From the NCBI RefSeq assembly GCF_003790525.1, contig NZ_CP033635.1: a stretch of DNA of 64,000 nucleotides. One strand, 5' to 3'. The translations under genes and the position numbers were made by a program. The notes beneath the pieces were generated by a model. That model had not been told where the DNA came from and ran no database searches. It was given only the letters and a program-made list of their open reading frames with translations. Source of the DNA: Escherichia coli. GTDB taxonomy: Bacteria > Pseudomonadota > Gammaproteobacteria > Enterobacterales > Enterobacteriaceae. Below, in pieces: positions 7,592-42,315 of the stretch (positions are counted from its first letter, which is position 1; each line of letters begins with the position of its first letter).

Positions 7592-9109
7592 ATGGAAAGA
7601 ATAATGCAAAACGGAAAATGGATTTTGACCTCGCTGGTAATGACTTTTTTTGGCATCCCCATACTGGCGCAATTTTTGGCAGCGGTTGTTGCCATGCTGG
7701 GGGCCGGGCTTGCCGCTATTTTTGATGTTTGCAATTTACTCTTTACGCCAACAATTTATCTTCTACTCAACGTCTTTATGCTGACGCTGGGCGCATTACT
7801 GCTATTTTTCTCTGGGCGAGTGTGGGCGGGCGATAGCGCACCAGAAAACAGAGAAATAGCCGCCTGGCGACAATGTCTTTTTTTAGTTCCCGCTTTATTA
7901 ACCCTGGTTGGCTGGATAATCACGCTACATCTGGCAGATTATCAATTTCGCCAGATGGTTTCAGGTTGGTTGGCAAACCTTATGCTTCCCTGGTTGGGCG
8001 TTTTTACAGTCTCATTCGTCGGTGGTGAGTACTGGTGGATAGTCATTATTCCCGTTGGCGCGCATATCAGTTTTTCACTGGGATACGGCTGGCCGACCAG
8101 ACACCCTTTAACCGGCACCTCCGGTCTACGTTGCCGTAATTTACTTCTGTTCATTCTTCTCTTACTGGGTATTGTCGCTGGTTATCAGGCTTATTTATAT
8201 AAACAGCTTAATCCCGGCGTCGGTGTGCGTGAAAATATTGATACCTGGGCCTGGCGACCCGATAAACTTAATAATCAACTGACGCCACTGCGTGGTAAAC
8301 CACAAATTCAATTTACGCAAAACTGGCCGCGACTCGATGGCGCTACGGCGGCGTACCCCATTTATGCCTCTGCATTTTATGCATTAAGTGTAATACCAGA
8401 GGATTTTCACGTTTGGGATTATCTGGATAACTCTCGTACGCAAGAAGCATATAACAAAATCGTTAAGGGCGATGCTGATATTATTTTCGTGGCGCAACCT
8501 TCCGATGGGCAAAAAAAACGCGCTGAGAAATCGGGCGTCACTTTGCTGTACACGCCATTTGCCCGTGAAGCGTTTGTTTTCATCGTCAATGCGGATAATC
8601 CGGTTAATTCCCTGACTGAACAACAAGTGCGTGACATTTTTAGTGGCGCAATTACCAACTGGCGCACGGTTGGCGGTAACGATCAGGAGATCCAGACCTG
8701 GCAACGCCCGGAAGACTCTGGCAGCCAGACAGTGATGCAATCGCAGGTCATGAAAAATGTCCGCATGATCTCGCCGCAGGAAACCGAAGTGGCAAGCATG
8801 ATGGAGGGAATGATTAAAGTCGTTGCCGAATACCGTAATACAAACAACGCAATAGGCTACACCTTCCGCTATTACGCAACACAAATGAATGCCGATAAAA
8901 ATATAAAACTGCTAGCGATTAACGGTATTGCACCGACTGCGGAAAATATTCGTAACGGCAAATATCCGTATATCATCGATGCCTTTATGGTAACGCGGGA
9001 AAATACTACGTCAGAAACACAAAAACTGGTCGAATGGTTTTTAACGCCGCAGGGACAGAGTCTGGTGGAAGATGTGGGCTATGTGCCGCTGTATCCAACA
9101 ATGAAATAA
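7592..9109 (+). CDS. membrane-anchored PstS-like (phosphate-binding-protein fold) protein: N-terminal polytopic TM domain plus C-terminal PBP domain
   Basis: 505-aa ORF (a second ATG at 7604 has a better-spaced GGAAAG RBS). Residues 1-210 carry about 5-6 hydrophobic helices; the C-terminal 270 aa show PstS-like motifs (AAYPIYASAFY, RPEDSGSQTVM, AIGYTFRYYA) that align with E. coli PstS (FPAPVYAKWA, DGSGTSFVFTSY, AIGYVEYAYA). Possible -10 TATAAT at 7568-7573. Confidence 0.7.
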   Translation: MERIMQNGKWILTSLVMTFFGIPILAQFLAAVVAMLGAGLAAIFDVCNLLFTPTIYLLLNVFMLTLGALLLFFSGRVWAGDSAPENREIAAWRQCLFLVPALLTLVGWIITLHLADYQFRQMVSGWLANLMLPWLGVFTVSFVGGEYWWIVIIPVGAHISFSLGYGWPTRHPLTGTSGLRCRNLLLFILLLLGIVAGYQAYLYKQLNPGVGVRENIDTWAWRPDKLNNQLTPLRGKPQIQFTQNWPRLDGATAAYPIYASAFYALSVIPEDFHVWDYLDNSRTQEAYNKIVKGDADIIFVAQPSDGQKKRAEKSGVTLLYTPFAREAFVFIVNADNPVNSLTEQQVRDIFSGAITNWRTVGGNDQEIQTWQRPEDSGSQTVMQSQVMKNVRMISPQETEVASMMEGMIKVVAEYRNTNNAIGYTFRYYATQMNADKNIKLLAINGIAPTAENIRNGKYPYIIDAFMVTRENTTSETQKLVEWFLTPQGQSLVEDVGYVPLYPTMK

Positions 9110-9134
9110 CGCTCGAGAGAAAGGAATCAGCGCA

Positions 9135-10127
9135 ATGAATAAATTCACCGGTGTTTTACTATTAGGTACGGCGCTACTGGCGGGATGTGTCGACCGGGAA
9201 GGGTACTATAACAGCGTCAGGGAAGAAGACAGCCATGGACTGACGTCTCTGCGGGGGCAACCTGAATTACGTTACAACGATGATTGGTCAAGATGGCCGA
9301 GAGTGTACGGCGCTACAGCCTTATACCCGCTGTATGCCTCCGCGTATTATGAATTAGTACCCGAGCCAAAAGATAAGGATCGAACCTCGCTGGCCTGGCA
9401 GGCGTATGGTTTGCAACAAACCCGAACAGCTGAAGCCTACGATAGTCTGATTAAGGGTACCGCGACGGTTATTTTTGTTGCACAACCGTCGGAAGGACAG
9501 AAAAAACGTGCAGAAGAAGCAGGTGTTAAACTCAAATATACCGCTTTCGCCCGCGAAGCCTTTGTCTTTATCGTTGATATCAAAAACCCGGTTAATTCAC
9601 TTAGCGAACAGCAGGTCAAAGACATTTTTAGCGGTAAAGTGAGTCGCTGGAATAAAGTGGGCGGCGGTGACGAAAGTATAAAAGTCTGGCAGCGGCCAGA
9701 AGATTCTGGAAGCCAAACGGTTATGAAGGGACTGGTTATGCAAGATACTCCAATGCTGCCAGCCAAAAAATCCACTGTTATCGATCTTATGGGCGGTTTA
9801 ATTACCGAAGTCGCCGACTACCAAAATACACCATCTTCTATTGGATACACCTTCCACTATTACGTCACACGTATGAATGACAATATGCTCAAAATGCGCA
9901 AACAGATCAAACTGCTGGCTATAAATGGCGTTGCACCTACAGAGGAAAATATCCGTAACGGCACTTATCCGTACATAATTCATGCTTATATGGTGACGCA
10001 CGAAAACCCTACGCTGGAAACGCAGAAATTCGTCGACTGGTTTTTAAGCCCGCAGGGACAGCAATTGGTAGAGGATGTGGGCTATGTGCCGATTTATGAC
10101 GCATCATCCGAATCATCAGGACAATAA
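9135..10127 (+). CDS. PstS-like substrate-binding lipoprotein, tandem paralog of the upstream gene
   Basis: 330-aa ORF; lipoprotein signal MNKFTGVLLLGTALLAGC (lipobox LAGC); mature part colinear with and clearly similar to the C-terminal domain of ORF 7592-9109 (ALYPLYASAYY, RPEDSGSQTVM, SIGYTFHYYV). Confidence 0.7.
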   Translation: MNKFTGVLLLGTALLAGCVDREGYYNSVREEDSHGLTSLRGQPELRYNDDWSRWPRVYGATALYPLYASAYYELVPEPKDKDRTSLAWQAYGLQQTRTAEAYDSLIKGTATVIFVAQPSEGQKKRAEEAGVKLKYTAFAREAFVFIVDIKNPVNSLSEQQVKDIFSGKVSRWNKVGGGDESIKVWQRPEDSGSQTVMKGLVMQDTPMLPAKKSTVIDLMGGLITEVADYQNTPSSIGYTFHYYVTRMNDNMLKMRKQIKLLAINGVAPTEENIRNGTYPYIIHAYMVTHENPTLETQKFVDWFLSPQGQQLVEDVGYVPIYDASSESSGQ

Positions 10128-10129
10128 AG

Positions 10130-10730
10130 ATGAATAAAATCAGACTTTATATTCCTCCGTTAATTCTTGGTTTTGTTATTGTGCCGTTGTTGGTGTGGCC
10201 GACGGTGGTTGCTCTGGCTGCTTGTGTTATCACGCTGAGTTTTATGGGAGAAATACTGTTCTCTATCCCGCTCATGTTCAGGCGTATTTCACTTCTGGAA
10301 TTCCAACTTGGGTTATTGGCTGAATATGCACTTTTTTTTTCTGTGCCATGTGTTGCGTTGGTTGGCAATTTTCTTGCAGAGCTCAATCTGAACTGAAAAG
10401 CAGACTCCATTGTTGGTTGGTATTTGCACCAGTTTATTTCTGGTTGCTCCTGTGGAATATCATTTTCTATGTCGCGCCAGCGCAAATTGCTTTGCTGGAA
10501 AATATGCGCAATTTCTTTCTGACCATTGTCTGGTTACCCCTGAATTTTTTCAATTTGGGTCTCAGCCGTGGACTGACTTTATCGGTCCGATAAGCGCCCA
10601 GCTTGGTTTTGCATTGGGATATTATTGCCAGTGGCGTAGCAAAAATAGAAGTCAGAGGAAGAAGTGGGGCGAGTGGGTAATGTGTCTGAGTTTTGTTACG
10701 TTGGGTATGATTGCGTGGGCTTTGCGGTAA
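10130..10730 (+). pseudogene. small integral membrane protein gene split over three reading frames (likely frameshift-inactivated), translationally coupled to the upstream PstS-like gene
   Basis: Three overlapping hydrophobic ORFs in three different frames (10130-10396, 10348-10593, 10410-10730). A T9 homopolymer at 10332-10340 sits exactly where restoring one T would join frame 1 to frame 2; a second one-base shift is needed before 10593 (a T6 run lies at 10545-10550). ATG 10130 is 2 nt after the upstream stop. Confidence 0.45.
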
Positions 10731-37805: not shown

Positions 37806-39874
<2,069 letters not shown>

Positions 39875-39877
39875 ATA

Positions 39878-39908
39878 AAACGGGAGGTGAAGGTGCCTCC
39901 CGTTTTTA
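39878..39908 (+). terminator. rho-independent terminator of ompR-envZ
   Basis: Hairpin cgggagg tgaaggtg cctcccg followed by T5; the stop codon of the minus-strand ORF 39906-40202 lies inside the T-run. Confidence 0.65.
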
Positions 39909-40202
39909 GATTGTTTTCAATTGATTGATAATGAAAGGATTCGCTTGCAAAAGCAGGAGCAATTTTCGGGGTGCTCCGGTAGGCTGACGGCGTTTGGTTT
40001 CCCAGCTTTTGACCAGGTCATAACTTACCCCTACGGCGACAGCAAAATCTTGCTGACGTAAACCCGTTGCTTCACGGATCGCTTTTACATCGATTTCGCT
40101 AAAAGTATGGACGTGCTCTGGTTCTGGCGTTTCTTCACCCTTTTCGATGCGTACCATTTCTTCTGCGCTGGCAAGAAGATCAGCAAATAATTCATCTTTC
40201 AT
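39906..40202 (-). CDS. putative antitoxin, helix-turn-helix (XRE / HigA-2-like) DNA-binding protein (98 aa)
   Basis: Small acidic ORF immediately downstream of a toxin-like gene; central-to-C-terminal segment GLRQQDFAVAVGVSYDLVKSWETKRRQPTGAPRKLLLLL resembles an HTH antitoxin module; absent from the compact envZ-pck junction I expect in E. coli K-12. Confidence 0.6.
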   Translation of the reverse strand: MKDELFADLLASAEEMVRIEKGEETPEPEHVHTFSEIDVKAIREATGLRQQDFAVAVGVSYDLVKSWETKRRQPTGAPRKLLLLLQANPFIINQLKTI

Positions 40203-40260
40203 CTGTTTTCAATGCCTCCGTTGACATTTCGGCCATGGTGGAATTTGTGGAGCTTCAACA

Positions 40261-40578
40261 TTAAAGCAGCTTCTCGGACAATAGTTTCAATGCCTTTCTT
40301 TGTTCTTCTGTTAAATCATCCTGTTCATTTTTAGGATAAATCAACGCCAGATAAATTCGGCCATTGCGTGTTACGTTGTAATAAATTATCCGAGTGCCAC
40401 CCCGTTTCCCCATTCCAGAACGGTTCCAGCGAATTTTTCTAAAACTGCCTGTGCCTGCGATAATGTCACCGGCAGTGGGATCTTGAATGAGTAGTTCCTG
40501 AAAAGCCCGGAACTCATCATCAGGTAGCAATAACTGGCGGCGTTTGCTAAATCCTTGTAGTTCAATAAAGGTGAACAT
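40261..40578 (-). CDS. putative type II toxin, RelE/ParE superfamily (HigB-2 / Gp49-like), 105 aa
   Basis: Signature GTGSFRKIRW...GKRGGTRIIYY...YLALIYPKNEQDDLTEEQ closely matches my recollection of HigB-2/Gp49-family toxins; toxin-first gene order with a 58-nt gap to the downstream HTH gene; AT-rich relative to flanking core genes. Confidence 0.6.
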   Translation of the reverse strand: MFTFIELQGFSKRRQLLLPDDEFRAFQELLIQDPTAGDIIAGTGSFRKIRWNRSGMGKRGGTRIIYYNVTRNGRIYLALIYPKNEQDDLTEEQRKALKLLSEKLL

Positions 40579-40641
40579 AATGCATCCTGCGGTCTATTGA
40601 TAATTATAAGTGTACCGTGTACATATTGGTAGCTAATTAGA

Positions 40642-40674
40642 TAAAAAAACCCCTTATCCGTTTGGATAAGGGGT
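40642..40674 (-). terminator. rho-independent terminator of pck
   Basis: Hairpin ccccttatcc gtttg gataagggg with an A8 run on the plus strand (U-run on the pck transcript), about 20 nt after the pck stop. Confidence 0.6.
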
Positions 40675-40692
40675 CAATGAGATATCAGCTGA

Positions 40693-42315
40693 TTACAGCT
40701 TAGGACCTGCCGCTACCAGCGCGGCACCCGCAGGGGTGTCGGTGTATTTATCAAAGTTGTCGATAAACAGTTTCGCCAGGGTTTCGGCTTTTTCCTGCCA
40801 CTGTTCCGGGGAAGCGTAGGTGTTACGCGGATCGAGGATCTTCGTGTCTACGCCCGGCAGTTCGGTTGGGATCGCCAGGTTAAACATCGGCAGAGTGAAG
40901 GTTTCTGCGTTATCCAGCGAACCGTTGAGGATGGCGTCGATAATGGCGCGGGTATCTTTAATCGAGATACGTTTGCCAGTGCCGTTCCAGCCGGTGTTAA
41001 CCAGATACGCCTGCGCGCCTGCCGCCTGCATACGTTTCACCAGCACTTCTGCGTACTGAGTTGGGTGCAGCGACAGGAATGCCGCGCCGAAGCAGGCGGA
41101 GAAGGTTGGCGTCGGTTCGGTGATGCCGCGCTCTGTACCAGCCAGTTTGGCGGTGAAGCCAGAGAGGAAGTGGTACTGGGTTTGATCGGCAGTCAGACGA
41201 GAAACCGGCGGCAGCACGCCGAAAGCATCAGCAGTCAGGAAGATAACCTTAGTTGCGTGGCCCGCTTTGGACACCGGCTTAACGATGTTTTCAATGTGAT
41301 AGATAGGATAAGAAACGCGGGTGTTCTCGGTTTTTGAACCATCATCAAAGTCGATAGAACCATCTTCACGCACGGTGACGTTTTCCAGCAGCGCATCACG
41401 ACGGATAGCGTTGTAGATTTCAGGTTCCGCTTCTTTCGACAGCTTGATAGTTTTTGCGTAGCAGCCGCCTTCAAAGTTAAACACGCCGTCATCGTCCCAG
41501 CCGTGTTCGTCATCGCCAATCAGGCGACGTTTCGGGTCGGTGGAAAGGGTGGTTTTACCGGTGCCGGAAAGGCCGAAGAACACCGCAACATCGCCTTTCT
41601 CACCAACGTTGGCGGAGCAGTGCATAGAAGCGATACCTTTCAGCGGCAGCAGGTAGTTCATCATTGAGAACATCCCTTTCTTCATTTCGCCGCCGTACCA
41701 GGTGCCGCCAATCAGCTGCATGCGCTCGGTCAGGTTAAACGCCACGAAGTTTTCGGAGTTCAGACCCTGTTCTTTCCACTGCGGGTTAGTGCACTTCGCG
41801 CCGTTCATAACGATAAAGTCTGGTTTGAAACCTGCCAGCTCTTCATCGCTCGGGCGAATAAACATGTTTTTGACAAAATGCGCCTGCCAGGCCACTTCGG
41901 TGATGAAACGGACGGAAAGACGAGTATCCGGGTTCGCACCACAGAAAGCGTCGACAACGAACAGACGTTTGCCGGAAAGCTGTTTGGTCACCAGGCCTTT
42001 AAGATGCTGCCAGGTTTCCGGAGAGAGAGGTTTGTTGTCGTTCTTACCTTTGCCTTTGTCTGCCCACCAGAAAGTATCGCGAGTGGTATCGTCACGGACG
42101 ATATACTTATCTTTTGGTGAACGACCGGTGAAGATCCCGGTATCGACGGCAACGGCACCCAGATTAGTTAACACCCCGCGCTCATAACCTGTCAGGCTCG
42201 GATCGAGCTCTTCCTGATACAGCAGGTCGTAGCTTGGGTTGTAAACGATATCATGTACGTCACTGATACCATAAGCCTCGAGTTCTTGCGGGGTCAAACC
42301 ATTGTTAACGCGCAT
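40693..42315 (-). CDS. pck: phosphoenolpyruvate carboxykinase (ATP), 540 aa
   Basis: [36 protein letters not shown]...; kinase P-loop GLSGTGKTT; start trimmed from track ORF 42384. Confidence 0.95.

Follow-up and report, generated by a model that had tools for sequence, protein, structure and literature searches.

Gene content of the pckA-envZ junction

The DNA analysed here (the window) is a stretch of 64 kb that is 100% identical to the chromosome of Escherichia coli SMS-3-5 (NC_010498.1). In it, envZ (38522-39874, + strand) and pckA (- strand, stop at 40693) flank two minus-strand genes, referred to below as the cassette. The toxin gene (higB2-like, 40261..40578, - strand, 105 aa) comes first and is followed, after an intergenic spacer of 58 nt (40203-40260), by the antitoxin gene (higA2-like, nadS in RefSeq, 39906..40202, - strand, 98 aa). 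envZ and pckA are separated by 818 bp, compared with 75 bp in MG1655. The first-pass annotation, made from the sequence alone, had put these distances at about 820 bp with two small minus-strand genes and at less than 100 bp without a gene in K-12; both figures were borne out, the reading frames lie where it had placed them, and the same genes are absent from K-12. Its description of a toxin-first, AT-rich pair with a 58-nt gap was equally accurate (GC content 0.41-0.48 for the cassette, versus 0.55-0.59 for envZ/pckA), and the toxin peptide motifs that it quoted are present in the 105-aa product.

The pair is already named by both RefSeq and Prokka: in the RefSeq annotation of SMS-3-5, the toxin (WP_000493757.1) is a "type II toxin-antitoxin system RelE/ParE family toxin" and the antitoxin (WP_000650976.1) is "nadS, NadS family protein". 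Judging from the strong purifying selection on both sequences across genera, the two reading frames are real genes and not chance occurrences. Literature searching turned up no experimental work on the E. coli pckA-envZ pair.

The cassette is a lone islet amid core genes, outside any defence island. No integrase or transposase genes were detected within 3 kb on either side or in the whole 64-kb window, and neither phage genes beside the cassette nor target-site duplications, terminal repeats, flanking direct or inverted repeats or att-like repeats around it were found. Searching the intergenic regions against Rfam gave sub-threshold matches only, all on a terminator, and no RNA element.

Identification of the toxin and antitoxin

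On the grounds of sequence and modelled structure, the 105-aa protein is a HigB-2-type toxin of the RelE/ParE superfamily, predicted to cleave mRNA in a ribosome-dependent manner. Its only Pfam match was PF06296 (E 5.6e-6, 27 bits, residues 44-104), the family to which Vibrio cholerae HigB-2 is assigned in a recent preprint (bioRxiv 10.1101/2025.01.28.635273), and the precomputed Pfam assignment of all the close homologues is PF06296 too. Alignment with the PDB sequence of V. cholerae HigB-2 covered residues 3-100 of 105 (E 5e-24) at approximately 48% identity (42-48% in structural alignment). The HigB-2-type, RelE/ParE-superfamily assignment of the first-pass annotation was thus upheld by profile, alignment and fold; its Gp49 label was abandoned, as the profile search returned no PF05973 at E <= 10. 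The active-site residues of VcHigB2 were established by mutagenesis as Arg51, Arg64, Tyr82 and Lys84 (PMC5416850), and their counterparts R50, R63, Y81 and K83 are invariant in an alignment of 25 sequences. Residue 62, the neighbour of the catalytic R63, is T in the SMS-3-5 toxin, in contrast to I62 in every other Escherichia allele sampled.

The structure was modelled with AlphaFold as a toxin-linker-antitoxin fusion (pLDDT 80.8; of the five models, only one was confident). The best PDB matches of this model were HigB2 chains and the HigA2 C-terminal domain (CTD). The toxin part was predicted as a RelE-like fold with a C-terminal helix and superimposed on HigB2 chains with TM-scores of 0.80-0.87 (rmsd 1.5-2.6 Å), and the C-terminal domain of the antitoxin matched the HigA2 CTD with TM-scores of 0.77-0.84.

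By the same kinds of evidence, the 98-aa protein is an antitoxin of the HigA-2/NadS type, predicted to neutralise the toxin. It passed the NCBIfam NadS model NF041265 (75.1 bits for a cut-off of 60, residues 5-96), matched the Pfam families HTH_31 (3.6e-5) and HTH_3 (8e-5) and aligned with V. cholerae HigA-2 over its full length (E 5e-5), which agrees with the XRE/HigA-2-type helix-turn-helix (HTH) antitoxin proposed at first. Its N-terminus, the predicted neutralising region, can be aligned with residues 4-36 of HigA2 and hardly varies between orthologues; in the confident fusion model, residues 3-20 form a helix and residues 31-34 a strand (pLDDT ~90). The predicted XRE HTH domain occupies the C-terminus. 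Of the base-contacting residues of V. cholerae HigA2 (R68, E71, N72, R77), only R77 is kept, the others being substituted (R68 to D, E71 to K, N72 to S). Because three of the four contact residues and the half-site spacing of the predicted operator differ, the DNA-binding geometry of the crystal structure is not directly transferable to this protein; to judge from the sequence, the changed contacts and operator alter the predicted specificity and not the family membership.

E. coli YiaG (NCBIfam PRK10072) also aligned with the antitoxin over its full length (E 4e-18), and resembles an orphan HigA2-like HTH protein; it is not known to have an adjacent toxin. Identity of the antitoxin with YiaG was rejected, since the score of 65.5 bits does not reach the curated cut-off (110). 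The K-12 "nadS" mentioned in PMC12350097 was likewise discarded as the same gene, having no DNA similarity to the cassette antitoxin, and a literature search for the origin of the name NadS gave nothing relevant.

Transcription and translation signals

Upstream of the toxin gene, a -10 element TATAAT (40603..40608, - strand) was predicted from the sequence and aligns with -10-like hexamers of the orthologues. The corresponding -35 element, placed by alignment of the upstream regions, is the predicted weak hexamer TACCAA (40626..40631, - strand), which matches the consensus at two of six positions and is TTGATT or TTGAxx in orthologues; owing to this weak -35, the promoter was not called by a consensus promoter scan.

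The 17-nt spacer between the two elements contains a 13-bp palindrome, TGTAC-N3-GTACA (40611..40623), predicted to be the HigA2/NadS operator. GTAC-N3-GTAC palindromes lie upstream of all 23 orthologous loci inspected (as TGTAC-N3-GTACA in most), within surroundings that are not conserved, and a paralogue on an IncF plasmid has the same architecture (24/24 loci in all). The motif occurs once in the 64 kb, where 0.02 matches were expected. An imperfect 28-bp palindrome over the -10 element was also considered as operator, but the 13-bp site, which is conserved phylogenetically, was preferred to it. The 13-bp operator is a concrete prediction, with a half-site spacing unlike that of the crystallised V. 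cholerae complex.

For translation of the toxin, a Shine-Dalgarno sequence AGGA (40585..40588, - strand) was read from the sequence 6 nt 5' of the ATG, and a CAGG(A/G) block is kept at this place in most orthologues. The putative antitoxin ribosome-binding site GGAGG (40215..40219, - strand) lies within the 58-nt spacer, 12 nt 5' of the ATG. Orthologues have spacers of anything from -4 to 85 nt, so that apart from this site the spacer shows no conservation.

Intrinsic terminators were located with a terminator scan. A bidirectional hairpin common to envZ (+) and the cassette (-) lies at 39877..39906 (-19.1 kcal/mol, z -4.8 on the + strand; -17.8 kcal/mol, z -6.6 on the - strand), and the nadS stop codon (39906-39908) sits inside its T/A tract; this hairpin is found in the K-12 empty site too. 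The pckA terminator (40641..40675, - strand; 12-bp stem, 4-nt loop, U7; -21.8 kcal/mol, z -5.6) is positioned between pckA and the predicted cassette promoter. It is missing from the K-12 empty site, is kept in the E. coli carriers and has equivalents in Citrobacter and Kluyvera. The first-pass annotation had asked whether expression is affected by read-through from either neighbour; with these two predicted structures on its sides, the operon appears insulated from pckA and envZ, and read-through looks unlikely.

Occurrence in Escherichia and other genera

The cassette was found in 1,328-1,330 of 5,426 complete E. coli genomes (~24.5%), as one chromosomal copy each and at the pckA-envZ junction every time. 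The same junction is occupied by the cassette in Escherichia albertii, Citrobacter and Kluyvera, and orthologues in other Enterobacterales are at other sites. Recombination mosaics were observed in strain A7 and in E. albertii. The cassette is an accessory islet without mobility genes that is spread and lost by homologous recombination of the pckA/envZ flanks. Of the initial proposal that the cassette was inserted and horizontally acquired, the accessory status stood, as did exchange by flank recombination among E. coli strains and with E. albertii; since the site is occupied in Citrobacter and Kluyvera too, the difference between the two strains could stem from loss in K-12 as well as from gain in SMS-3-5. 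Alignment of the 45-nt K-12 spacer with both strands of the cassette revealed no deletion scar (score 16, shuffle mean 17.6), and a spacer without a cassette remnant is compatible with gain as well as with loss.

Two apparent exceptions were artefacts. A third allele in HS-02 and BS-04, where the match consisted of the last 45 nt of nadS only, was homopolymer assembly noise in a normal cassette, and a plasmid copy with 99% identity (NZ_OL790696.1) proved to be a chromosome of 4.8 Mb that PLSDB wrongly lists among the plasmids.

Divergence of the cassette between E. coli lineages was 0.3-2.2%, versus 1-4% for the neighbouring core genes; this is at the low end of the core-gene range and not clearly outside it, and a recent sweep is not claimed. 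Between genera, dS was at least 1.25 and often saturated for the cassette, versus 0.76-0.94 for the flanks, a contrast that on ~100 codons is too noisy to decide on vertical co-inheritance with the flanks. At the pckA-envZ junction, a second islet, of 2.8 kb, is present in E. albertii; possibly the junction is a hot spot of recombination where small islets are captured.

Selection and decayed alleles

Across genera, dN/dS was 0.04-0.13 for the toxin and approximately 0.01 for the antitoxin, with saturated synonymous sites, and both genes are therefore under strong purifying selection. The antitoxin is the more conserved protein in every comparison (85-96% amino-acid identity, versus 69-83% for the toxin, in Enterobacterales). 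In type II toxin-antitoxin (TA) pairs, the antitoxin is expected to be less constrained than the toxin; the pattern here is the reverse.

An inactivated allele, of the type found in the probiotic Nissle 1917, is present in about 8% of carriers, which makes the module dispensable. It combines a dead toxin, with a nonsense codon at position 22 (~104-107 genomes), with a 7-nt deletion that damages promoter and operator. Decayed toxins beside intact antitoxins were also found in Kluyvera sichuanensis, Phytobacter ursingii, Photorhabdus bodei and others. Paralogous pairs with ~50% identity are carried by IncF plasmids in E. coli.

Function of the locus

Two small co-oriented genes, one predicted promoter, a predicted operator and a protein antitoxin make up what the first-pass annotation had recognised as a type II TA module. 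Taking these sequence features together with the structural model and the analogy to V. cholerae, the locus is very probably an intact, autoregulated type II TA operon of the HigB-2/HigA-2 family. The single promoter would give a bicistronic mRNA, toxin then antitoxin, ending at the terminator hairpin shared with envZ. By comparison with V. cholerae HigBA2, the toxin would enter the ribosomal A site and cut translated mRNA by means of R50, R63, Y81 and K83; the antitoxin would dimerise through its C-terminal XRE HTH domain, and its ~35 N-terminal residues, disordered when free, would fold on the toxin into a helix and a strand and switch it off. From footprinting, the antitoxin, with or without toxin, would occupy the single TGTAC-N3-GTACA site and repress the operon. 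The biological role could be addiction/stabilisation, a stress response or phage defence, or the cassette could be a purely selfish element.

Abortive-infection phage defence as the main selected role, instead of addiction or stress response, is an unlikely but not far-fetched alternative. Toxins of the RelE/ParE superfamily have been proposed as anti-phage toxins (bioRxiv 10.1101/2025.01.28.635273), and patchy accessory distribution with recombinational turnover is typical of defence genes. Against this, the toxin had no matches in PADLOC-DB and the antitoxin only generic HTH matches, the islet stands alone between core genes, and a search for phage-challenge data found none.

Somewhat less probable is that NadS/HigA2 is kept for a toxin-independent role, either cross-neutralising plasmid HigB-2 or regulating other GTAC-N3-GTAC sites. 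The suggestion comes from its non-synonymous evolution, roughly 10-fold slower than that of its toxin within Enterobacterales, and from its repeated survival after toxin decay, and plasmid-borne HigB-2 paralogues circulate in E. coli and Klebsiella. In a stricter form, to which we give slightly less credence still, the cassette would be a decaying remnant with an inactive toxin, in which NadS persists either to regulate transcription or to counteract plasmid HigB-2 as an "anti-addiction" antitoxin. The greater conservation of the antitoxin throughout Enterobacterales, the repeated toxin decay beside it and the IncF paralogues all fit such a remnant. However, the SMS-3-5 toxin frame is intact with all its catalytic residues, toxins are under purifying selection across genera, and the operator motif is present just once in the window. 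Damage to promoter and operator in the Nissle allele suggests that the operon is decaying as a whole and that NadS is not being retained, and the strong constraint is already accounted for by the HigA2 N-terminus, which in V. cholerae both binds the toxin and adds to operator affinity (PMC11006873).

A Gp49 (PF05973, phage-derived) toxin in a prophage remnant is very improbable: the cassette proteins matched PHROGs of unknown function (phrog_5869, 7.6e-34; phrog_2104, 7.8e-28) and a few phage records encode homologues with 31-43% identity, but Pfam yields PF06296 alone, the flanks are devoid of the phage hallmarks listed above, and homologues occur in 9 of 50,697 phage records versus 903 plasmid records.

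The intact TA operon remains the preferred reading, and the pair is a known one, real but ordinary, with a family, structure and mechanism that are well described. Its clean natural presence/absence polymorphism, with carriage by about one quarter of E. coli and an allele that is intact in SMS-3-5 but dead in Nissle 1917, suits tests of the effect of chromosomal TA modules on the host.

Relation to characterised systems

The closest characterised system is V. cholerae HigB-2/HigA-2 (VCA0468/0469; PDB 5JA8, 5JAA, 5J9I, 8A0X). Both systems share the toxin-first operon, and all four catalytic residues of the toxin are kept along with its IIYY "sliding" strand. The antitoxins have the same length and, from sequence, the same predicted layout, with a neutralising region of helix plus strand at the N-terminus and a dimerising XRE HTH domain at the C-terminus, and in both the operator is placed (here by prediction) between -35 and -10 with TGTAC/GTACA half-site cores. 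Unlike the toxins, the antitoxins are just ~25-30% identical, in addition to the replaced base contacts, and the operator is TGTAC-N3-GTACA here versus TGTACGC-N5-GCGTACA in V. cholerae, which sets the GTAC cores apart by N3 versus N9. In V. cholerae, the module is part of the superintegron; the cassette has a core gene on either side.

More distant than the V. cholerae pair is the plasmid-borne HigBA2 of Acinetobacter baumannii pAB120, of which the toxin is by experiment an RNase and the antitoxin represses the promoter with the toxin as co-repressor (PMC5906591); it is a member of the same PF06296-type family, with 38-41% identity to Acinetobacter plasmids in tblastn. K-12 RelE/RelB and HigB/HigA (YgjN/YgjM) belong to the same RelE/ParE superfamily and would by analogy share the general mechanism, ribosome-dependent mRNA cleavage. 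RelE was matched by the model with TM-scores of 0.6-0.7, but K-12 RelE and HigB belong to other Pfam families (PF05016 and PF05015) with other antitoxin folds or layouts, and DNA similarity of the cassette to these K-12 pairs was not detectable.

Chromosomal orthologues (a RelE/ParE toxin with NadS) are found in Klebsiella, Citrobacter, Kluyvera, Leclercia, Edwardsiella, Budvicia and E. albertii, with toxins 69-83% and antitoxins 77-96% identical to those of the E. coli cassette (99% and 100% in E. albertii), and they share its gene order and operator motif. At other chromosomal sites, the orthologues have two operator copies ~31 bp apart and often a terminator hairpin of their own; the pckA-envZ version has the proximal operator only and, in Escherichia, has lost its own terminator and uses that of envZ.

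Layout and composition of the pckA-envZ locus

The window was identical (100%) to the E. coli SMS-3-5 chromosome NC_010498.1. The stop codons of envZ (39874, + strand) and pckA (40693, - strand) were separated by 818 bp, occupied by two minus-strand ORFs: a toxin ORF of 105 aa (40261-40578) and, downstream of it after an intergenic gap of 58 nt, an antitoxin ORF of 98 aa (39906-40202). The GC content was 0.41-0.48 in the cassette vs 0.55-0.59 in the flanks. In strain MG1655, the same junction measured 75 bp and was gene-free. The factual elements of the first-pass annotation (gap length, two minus-strand ORFs, spacer, low GC and the empty K-12 junction) were thus all correct.

Cassettes of this kind are known, and this one already carries an annotation. 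RefSeq names the pair ('type II toxin-antitoxin system RelE/ParE family toxin' and 'nadS, NadS family protein'). 'HigB-2/HigA-2' has also been listed in E. coli isolates by Prokka-based papers (e.g. PMC10304320). Among the papers searched, none reported experiments on the E. coli pckA-envZ locus.

Identity of the toxin and of the antitoxin

The toxin had been proposed to be of the Gp49/HigB-2 type. The HigB-2 part was borne out; the Pfam scan gave one match, PF06296 'RelE' (E 5.6e-6), and no Gp49 match. PF06296 is the family of V. cholerae HigB-2 (bioRxiv 10.1101/2025.01.28.635273), which was matched over essentially the full length of the toxin (residues 3-100, E 5e-24) in a comparison with all PDB sequences. 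Alanine substitution of HigB2 Arg51, Arg64, Tyr82 or Lys84 lowers activity 170- to 3000-fold (PMC5416850); the aligned equivalents in the SMS-3-5 toxin, R50, R63, Y81 and K83, were invariant across 25 aligned toxins, from Escherichia to marine gammaproteobacteria. Codon 62 (40393-40395), adjoining catalytic Arg63, encodes Thr in SMS-3-5; this residue was Ile in E. albertii and in five other E. coli alleles examined, V, I or L in other orthologues and Ser in V. cholerae.

The proposed XRE/HigA-2-type antitoxin was likewise supported: the protein scored 75.1 bits against the NCBIfam NadS model (curated cut-off 60), carried an HTH_31/HTH_3 C-terminal domain and aligned end-to-end with V. cholerae HigA-2 (E 5e-5). 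For structure modelling, a toxin-linker-antitoxin fusion was used, with 22 orthologous toxin and antitoxin pairs in the paired alignment. One of the five models reached a pLDDT of 80.8 and the remaining four were poor; the top PDB matches of the former were HigB2 chains (TM 0.80-0.87, rmsd 1.5-2.6 Å) and the HigA2 C-terminal domain (TM 0.77-0.84). In this single confident model, the antitoxin was predicted with high confidence to form a helix at residues 3-20 and a strand at residues 31-34.

Promoter, predicted operator and terminators

The 130 nt preceding the toxin start were lined up for 23 orthologous loci, and just two blocks proved to be conserved: a CAGG(A/G) Shine-Dalgarno and a GTAC-N3-GTAC palindrome (TGTAC-N3-GTACA at most loci). 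The palindrome (TGTACCGTGTACA, 40611-40623), the predicted operator, occurred once in 64 kb (0.02 expected by chance) and lay within the promoter spacer, whose 17 nt separate a perfect -10 (TATAAT, 40608-40603, - strand) from a weak -35 (TACCAA). In orthologues located elsewhere on the chromosome and in an IncF plasmid paralogue, the operator was present twice, at a distance of about 31 bp and on either side of the -35; the pckA-envZ version had the proximal copy only.

Read-through from the neighbouring genes had been raised as a question, and terminators were found on both sides of the operon. A pckA terminator (40675-40641, - strand; 12-bp stem, U7, -21.8 kcal/mol) was located between pckA and the toxin-antitoxin promoter. 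On the other side, the nadS stop codon lay within the tract of the bidirectional envZ hairpin (39877-39906), so this hairpin ends the toxin-antitoxin operon too. In K-12, the same single hairpin serves both envZ and pckA. The Rfam search gave no match above threshold.

Distribution and history of the junction

The cassette was accessory: of 5,426 complete E. coli genomes, 1,328 carried it (two further genomes were garbled assemblies), always as a single chromosomal copy at the pckA-envZ junction with 97.5-100% identity. Strains HS-02 (L046:960-1546) and BS-04 were rejected as a distinct allele: homopolymer runs filling the cassette region, annotated in these 'complete' assemblies as a 177-aa hypothetical protein, are an assembly/polishing artefact. 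The PLSDB entry NZ_OL790696.1 ('plasmid unnamed', L048) was rejected as a plasmid copy, since it is a misfiled 4.8-Mb chromosome with the pckA-cassette region. In the cassette carrier E. coli A35 (L041:4290-5915), pckA was annotated as frameshifted, which may be a sequencing error.

Close orthologues (toxin identity 69-83%) were chromosomal in many Enterobacterales. The pckA-envZ junction was also occupied in E. albertii, three Citrobacter species and Kluyvera ascorbata, and retained the antitoxin alone in Kluyvera sichuanensis; unrelated sites were used in Klebsiella, Pseudescherichia, Leclercia, Edwardsiella, Budvicia and others. Paralogous toxin and NadS pairs are borne by E. coli conjugative plasmids: the pair of the IncFIB/IncFII plasmid pEC190759_1 (L047:1366-2160; RelE/ParE toxin and NadS, 50% and 48% identity) had two AGTAC-N3-GTACT operators flanking the -35. 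Such a pair could conceivably cross-talk with the chromosomal module.

No integrase, IS element or flanking repeats were found at the cassette, and no cassette remnant was detectable in the K-12 spacer. Movement of the cassette is illustrated by two recombination mosaics. Strain A7 was K-12-like on the envZ side (6 differences/1,875 nt) and in distal pckA (4 differences/1,317 nt), and carried the cassette with 590 nt of the pckA 3' end (32 differences). E. albertii was 97.5-99.3% identical to SMS-3-5 across the 3'-terminal 320 nt of pckA and onwards up to and including nadS, vs 91-93% in the rest of pckA and envZ, with a dS of 0.03-0.07 for the cassette vs 0.33 for pckA. The nadS/envZ-terminator boundary was one breakpoint in both mosaics. 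Between genera, synonymous divergence was too saturated for cassette and flanks to be compared.

The pckA 3' 600 nt (40693-41290), within which these two independent tracts terminate, differed by 3-5% between E. coli lineages vs 1-2% in remaining pckA. In E. albertii NBRC 107761 (L009:4674-8030), the last ~245 nt of envZ and the terminator were duplicated, adjoining the cassette, and short pckA-like fragments lay nearby; the envZ-end copies enclosed a 2.8-kb islet with four putative ORFs (213, 176, 179 and 211 aa), a second insertion at this junction. A further small accessory difference within the window was seen at 7601-10730, where the SMS-3-5 glpD-glgP interval held two genes for PstS-family substrate-binding proteins, plus a hypothetical gene with a frameshift; in K-12 this interval presumably contains nothing but a pseudogene remnant (yzgL).

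Toxin decay and antitoxin constraint

Toxin codon 22 was a nonsense codon in ~104-107 of the 1,328 cassettes, including that of Nissle 1917 (L039:3855-4281, equivalent to 40261-40692). In this type of allele, a 7-nt deletion removed one operator half-site and cut the promoter spacer to 10 nt, and NadS was intact and identical in protein to that of SMS-3-5. The K. sichuanensis toxin (L038:4001-4377) was reduced to 17 codons and that of Phytobacter ursingii (L037) was truncated, each with a full-length antitoxin by tblastn. At three loci (L033, L035 and L036; Photorhabdus bodei, Enterobacteriaceae bacterium B14 and Photobacterium ganghwense), the toxin appeared as two split or overlapping tblastn segments, which suggests frameshifts, beside a full-length antitoxin match.

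Within Enterobacterales, the antitoxin was always better conserved (85-96% identity vs 69-83% for the toxin), with a dN/dS of ~0.01 vs 0.04-0.13. Synonymous sites were saturated, so the constraint is on the protein rather than on the nucleotide sequence. The HigA2 N-terminus both neutralises the toxin and contributes to operator affinity (PMC11006873), and this double duty suffices to explain the strong constraint. A toxin-independent role of the antitoxin is improbable.

Comparison with characterised HigBA2 systems

The cassette belongs to the HigB-2/HigA-2 (PF06296 and NadS) family, and its toxin is not of the Gp49 family. All computable family features were found, except that the DNA-recognition residues and the spacing of the operator are not identical; these differences concern specificity and leave family membership intact. 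Beyond the anatomy and homology documented here (sequence, catalytic residues, fold), the mechanism is modelled on V. cholerae and A. baumannii HigBA2: the toxin would cleave mRNA in a ribosome-dependent manner, the NadS N-terminus would fold onto it and neutralise it, the TGTAC-N3-GTACA site would be the place of autorepression, and antitoxin depletion would release the toxin.

The helix and strand modelled in NadS correspond to elements that V. cholerae HigA2 adopts only in the toxin-bound state (PMC5416850). The footprinted V. cholerae operator, TGTACGC-N5-GCGTACA, starts just past the -35 and extends across the -10 (PMC11006873), and the placement of the predicted E. coli operator agrees with it. 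The TGTAC/GTACA cores are common to both sites, but their spacing differs (3 nt in E. coli, 9 nt in V. cholerae). Of the four residues through which V. cholerae HigA2 contacts bases, NadS keeps R77 and differs at the other three (R68->D, E71->K, N72->S), which is consistent with the different operator spacing.
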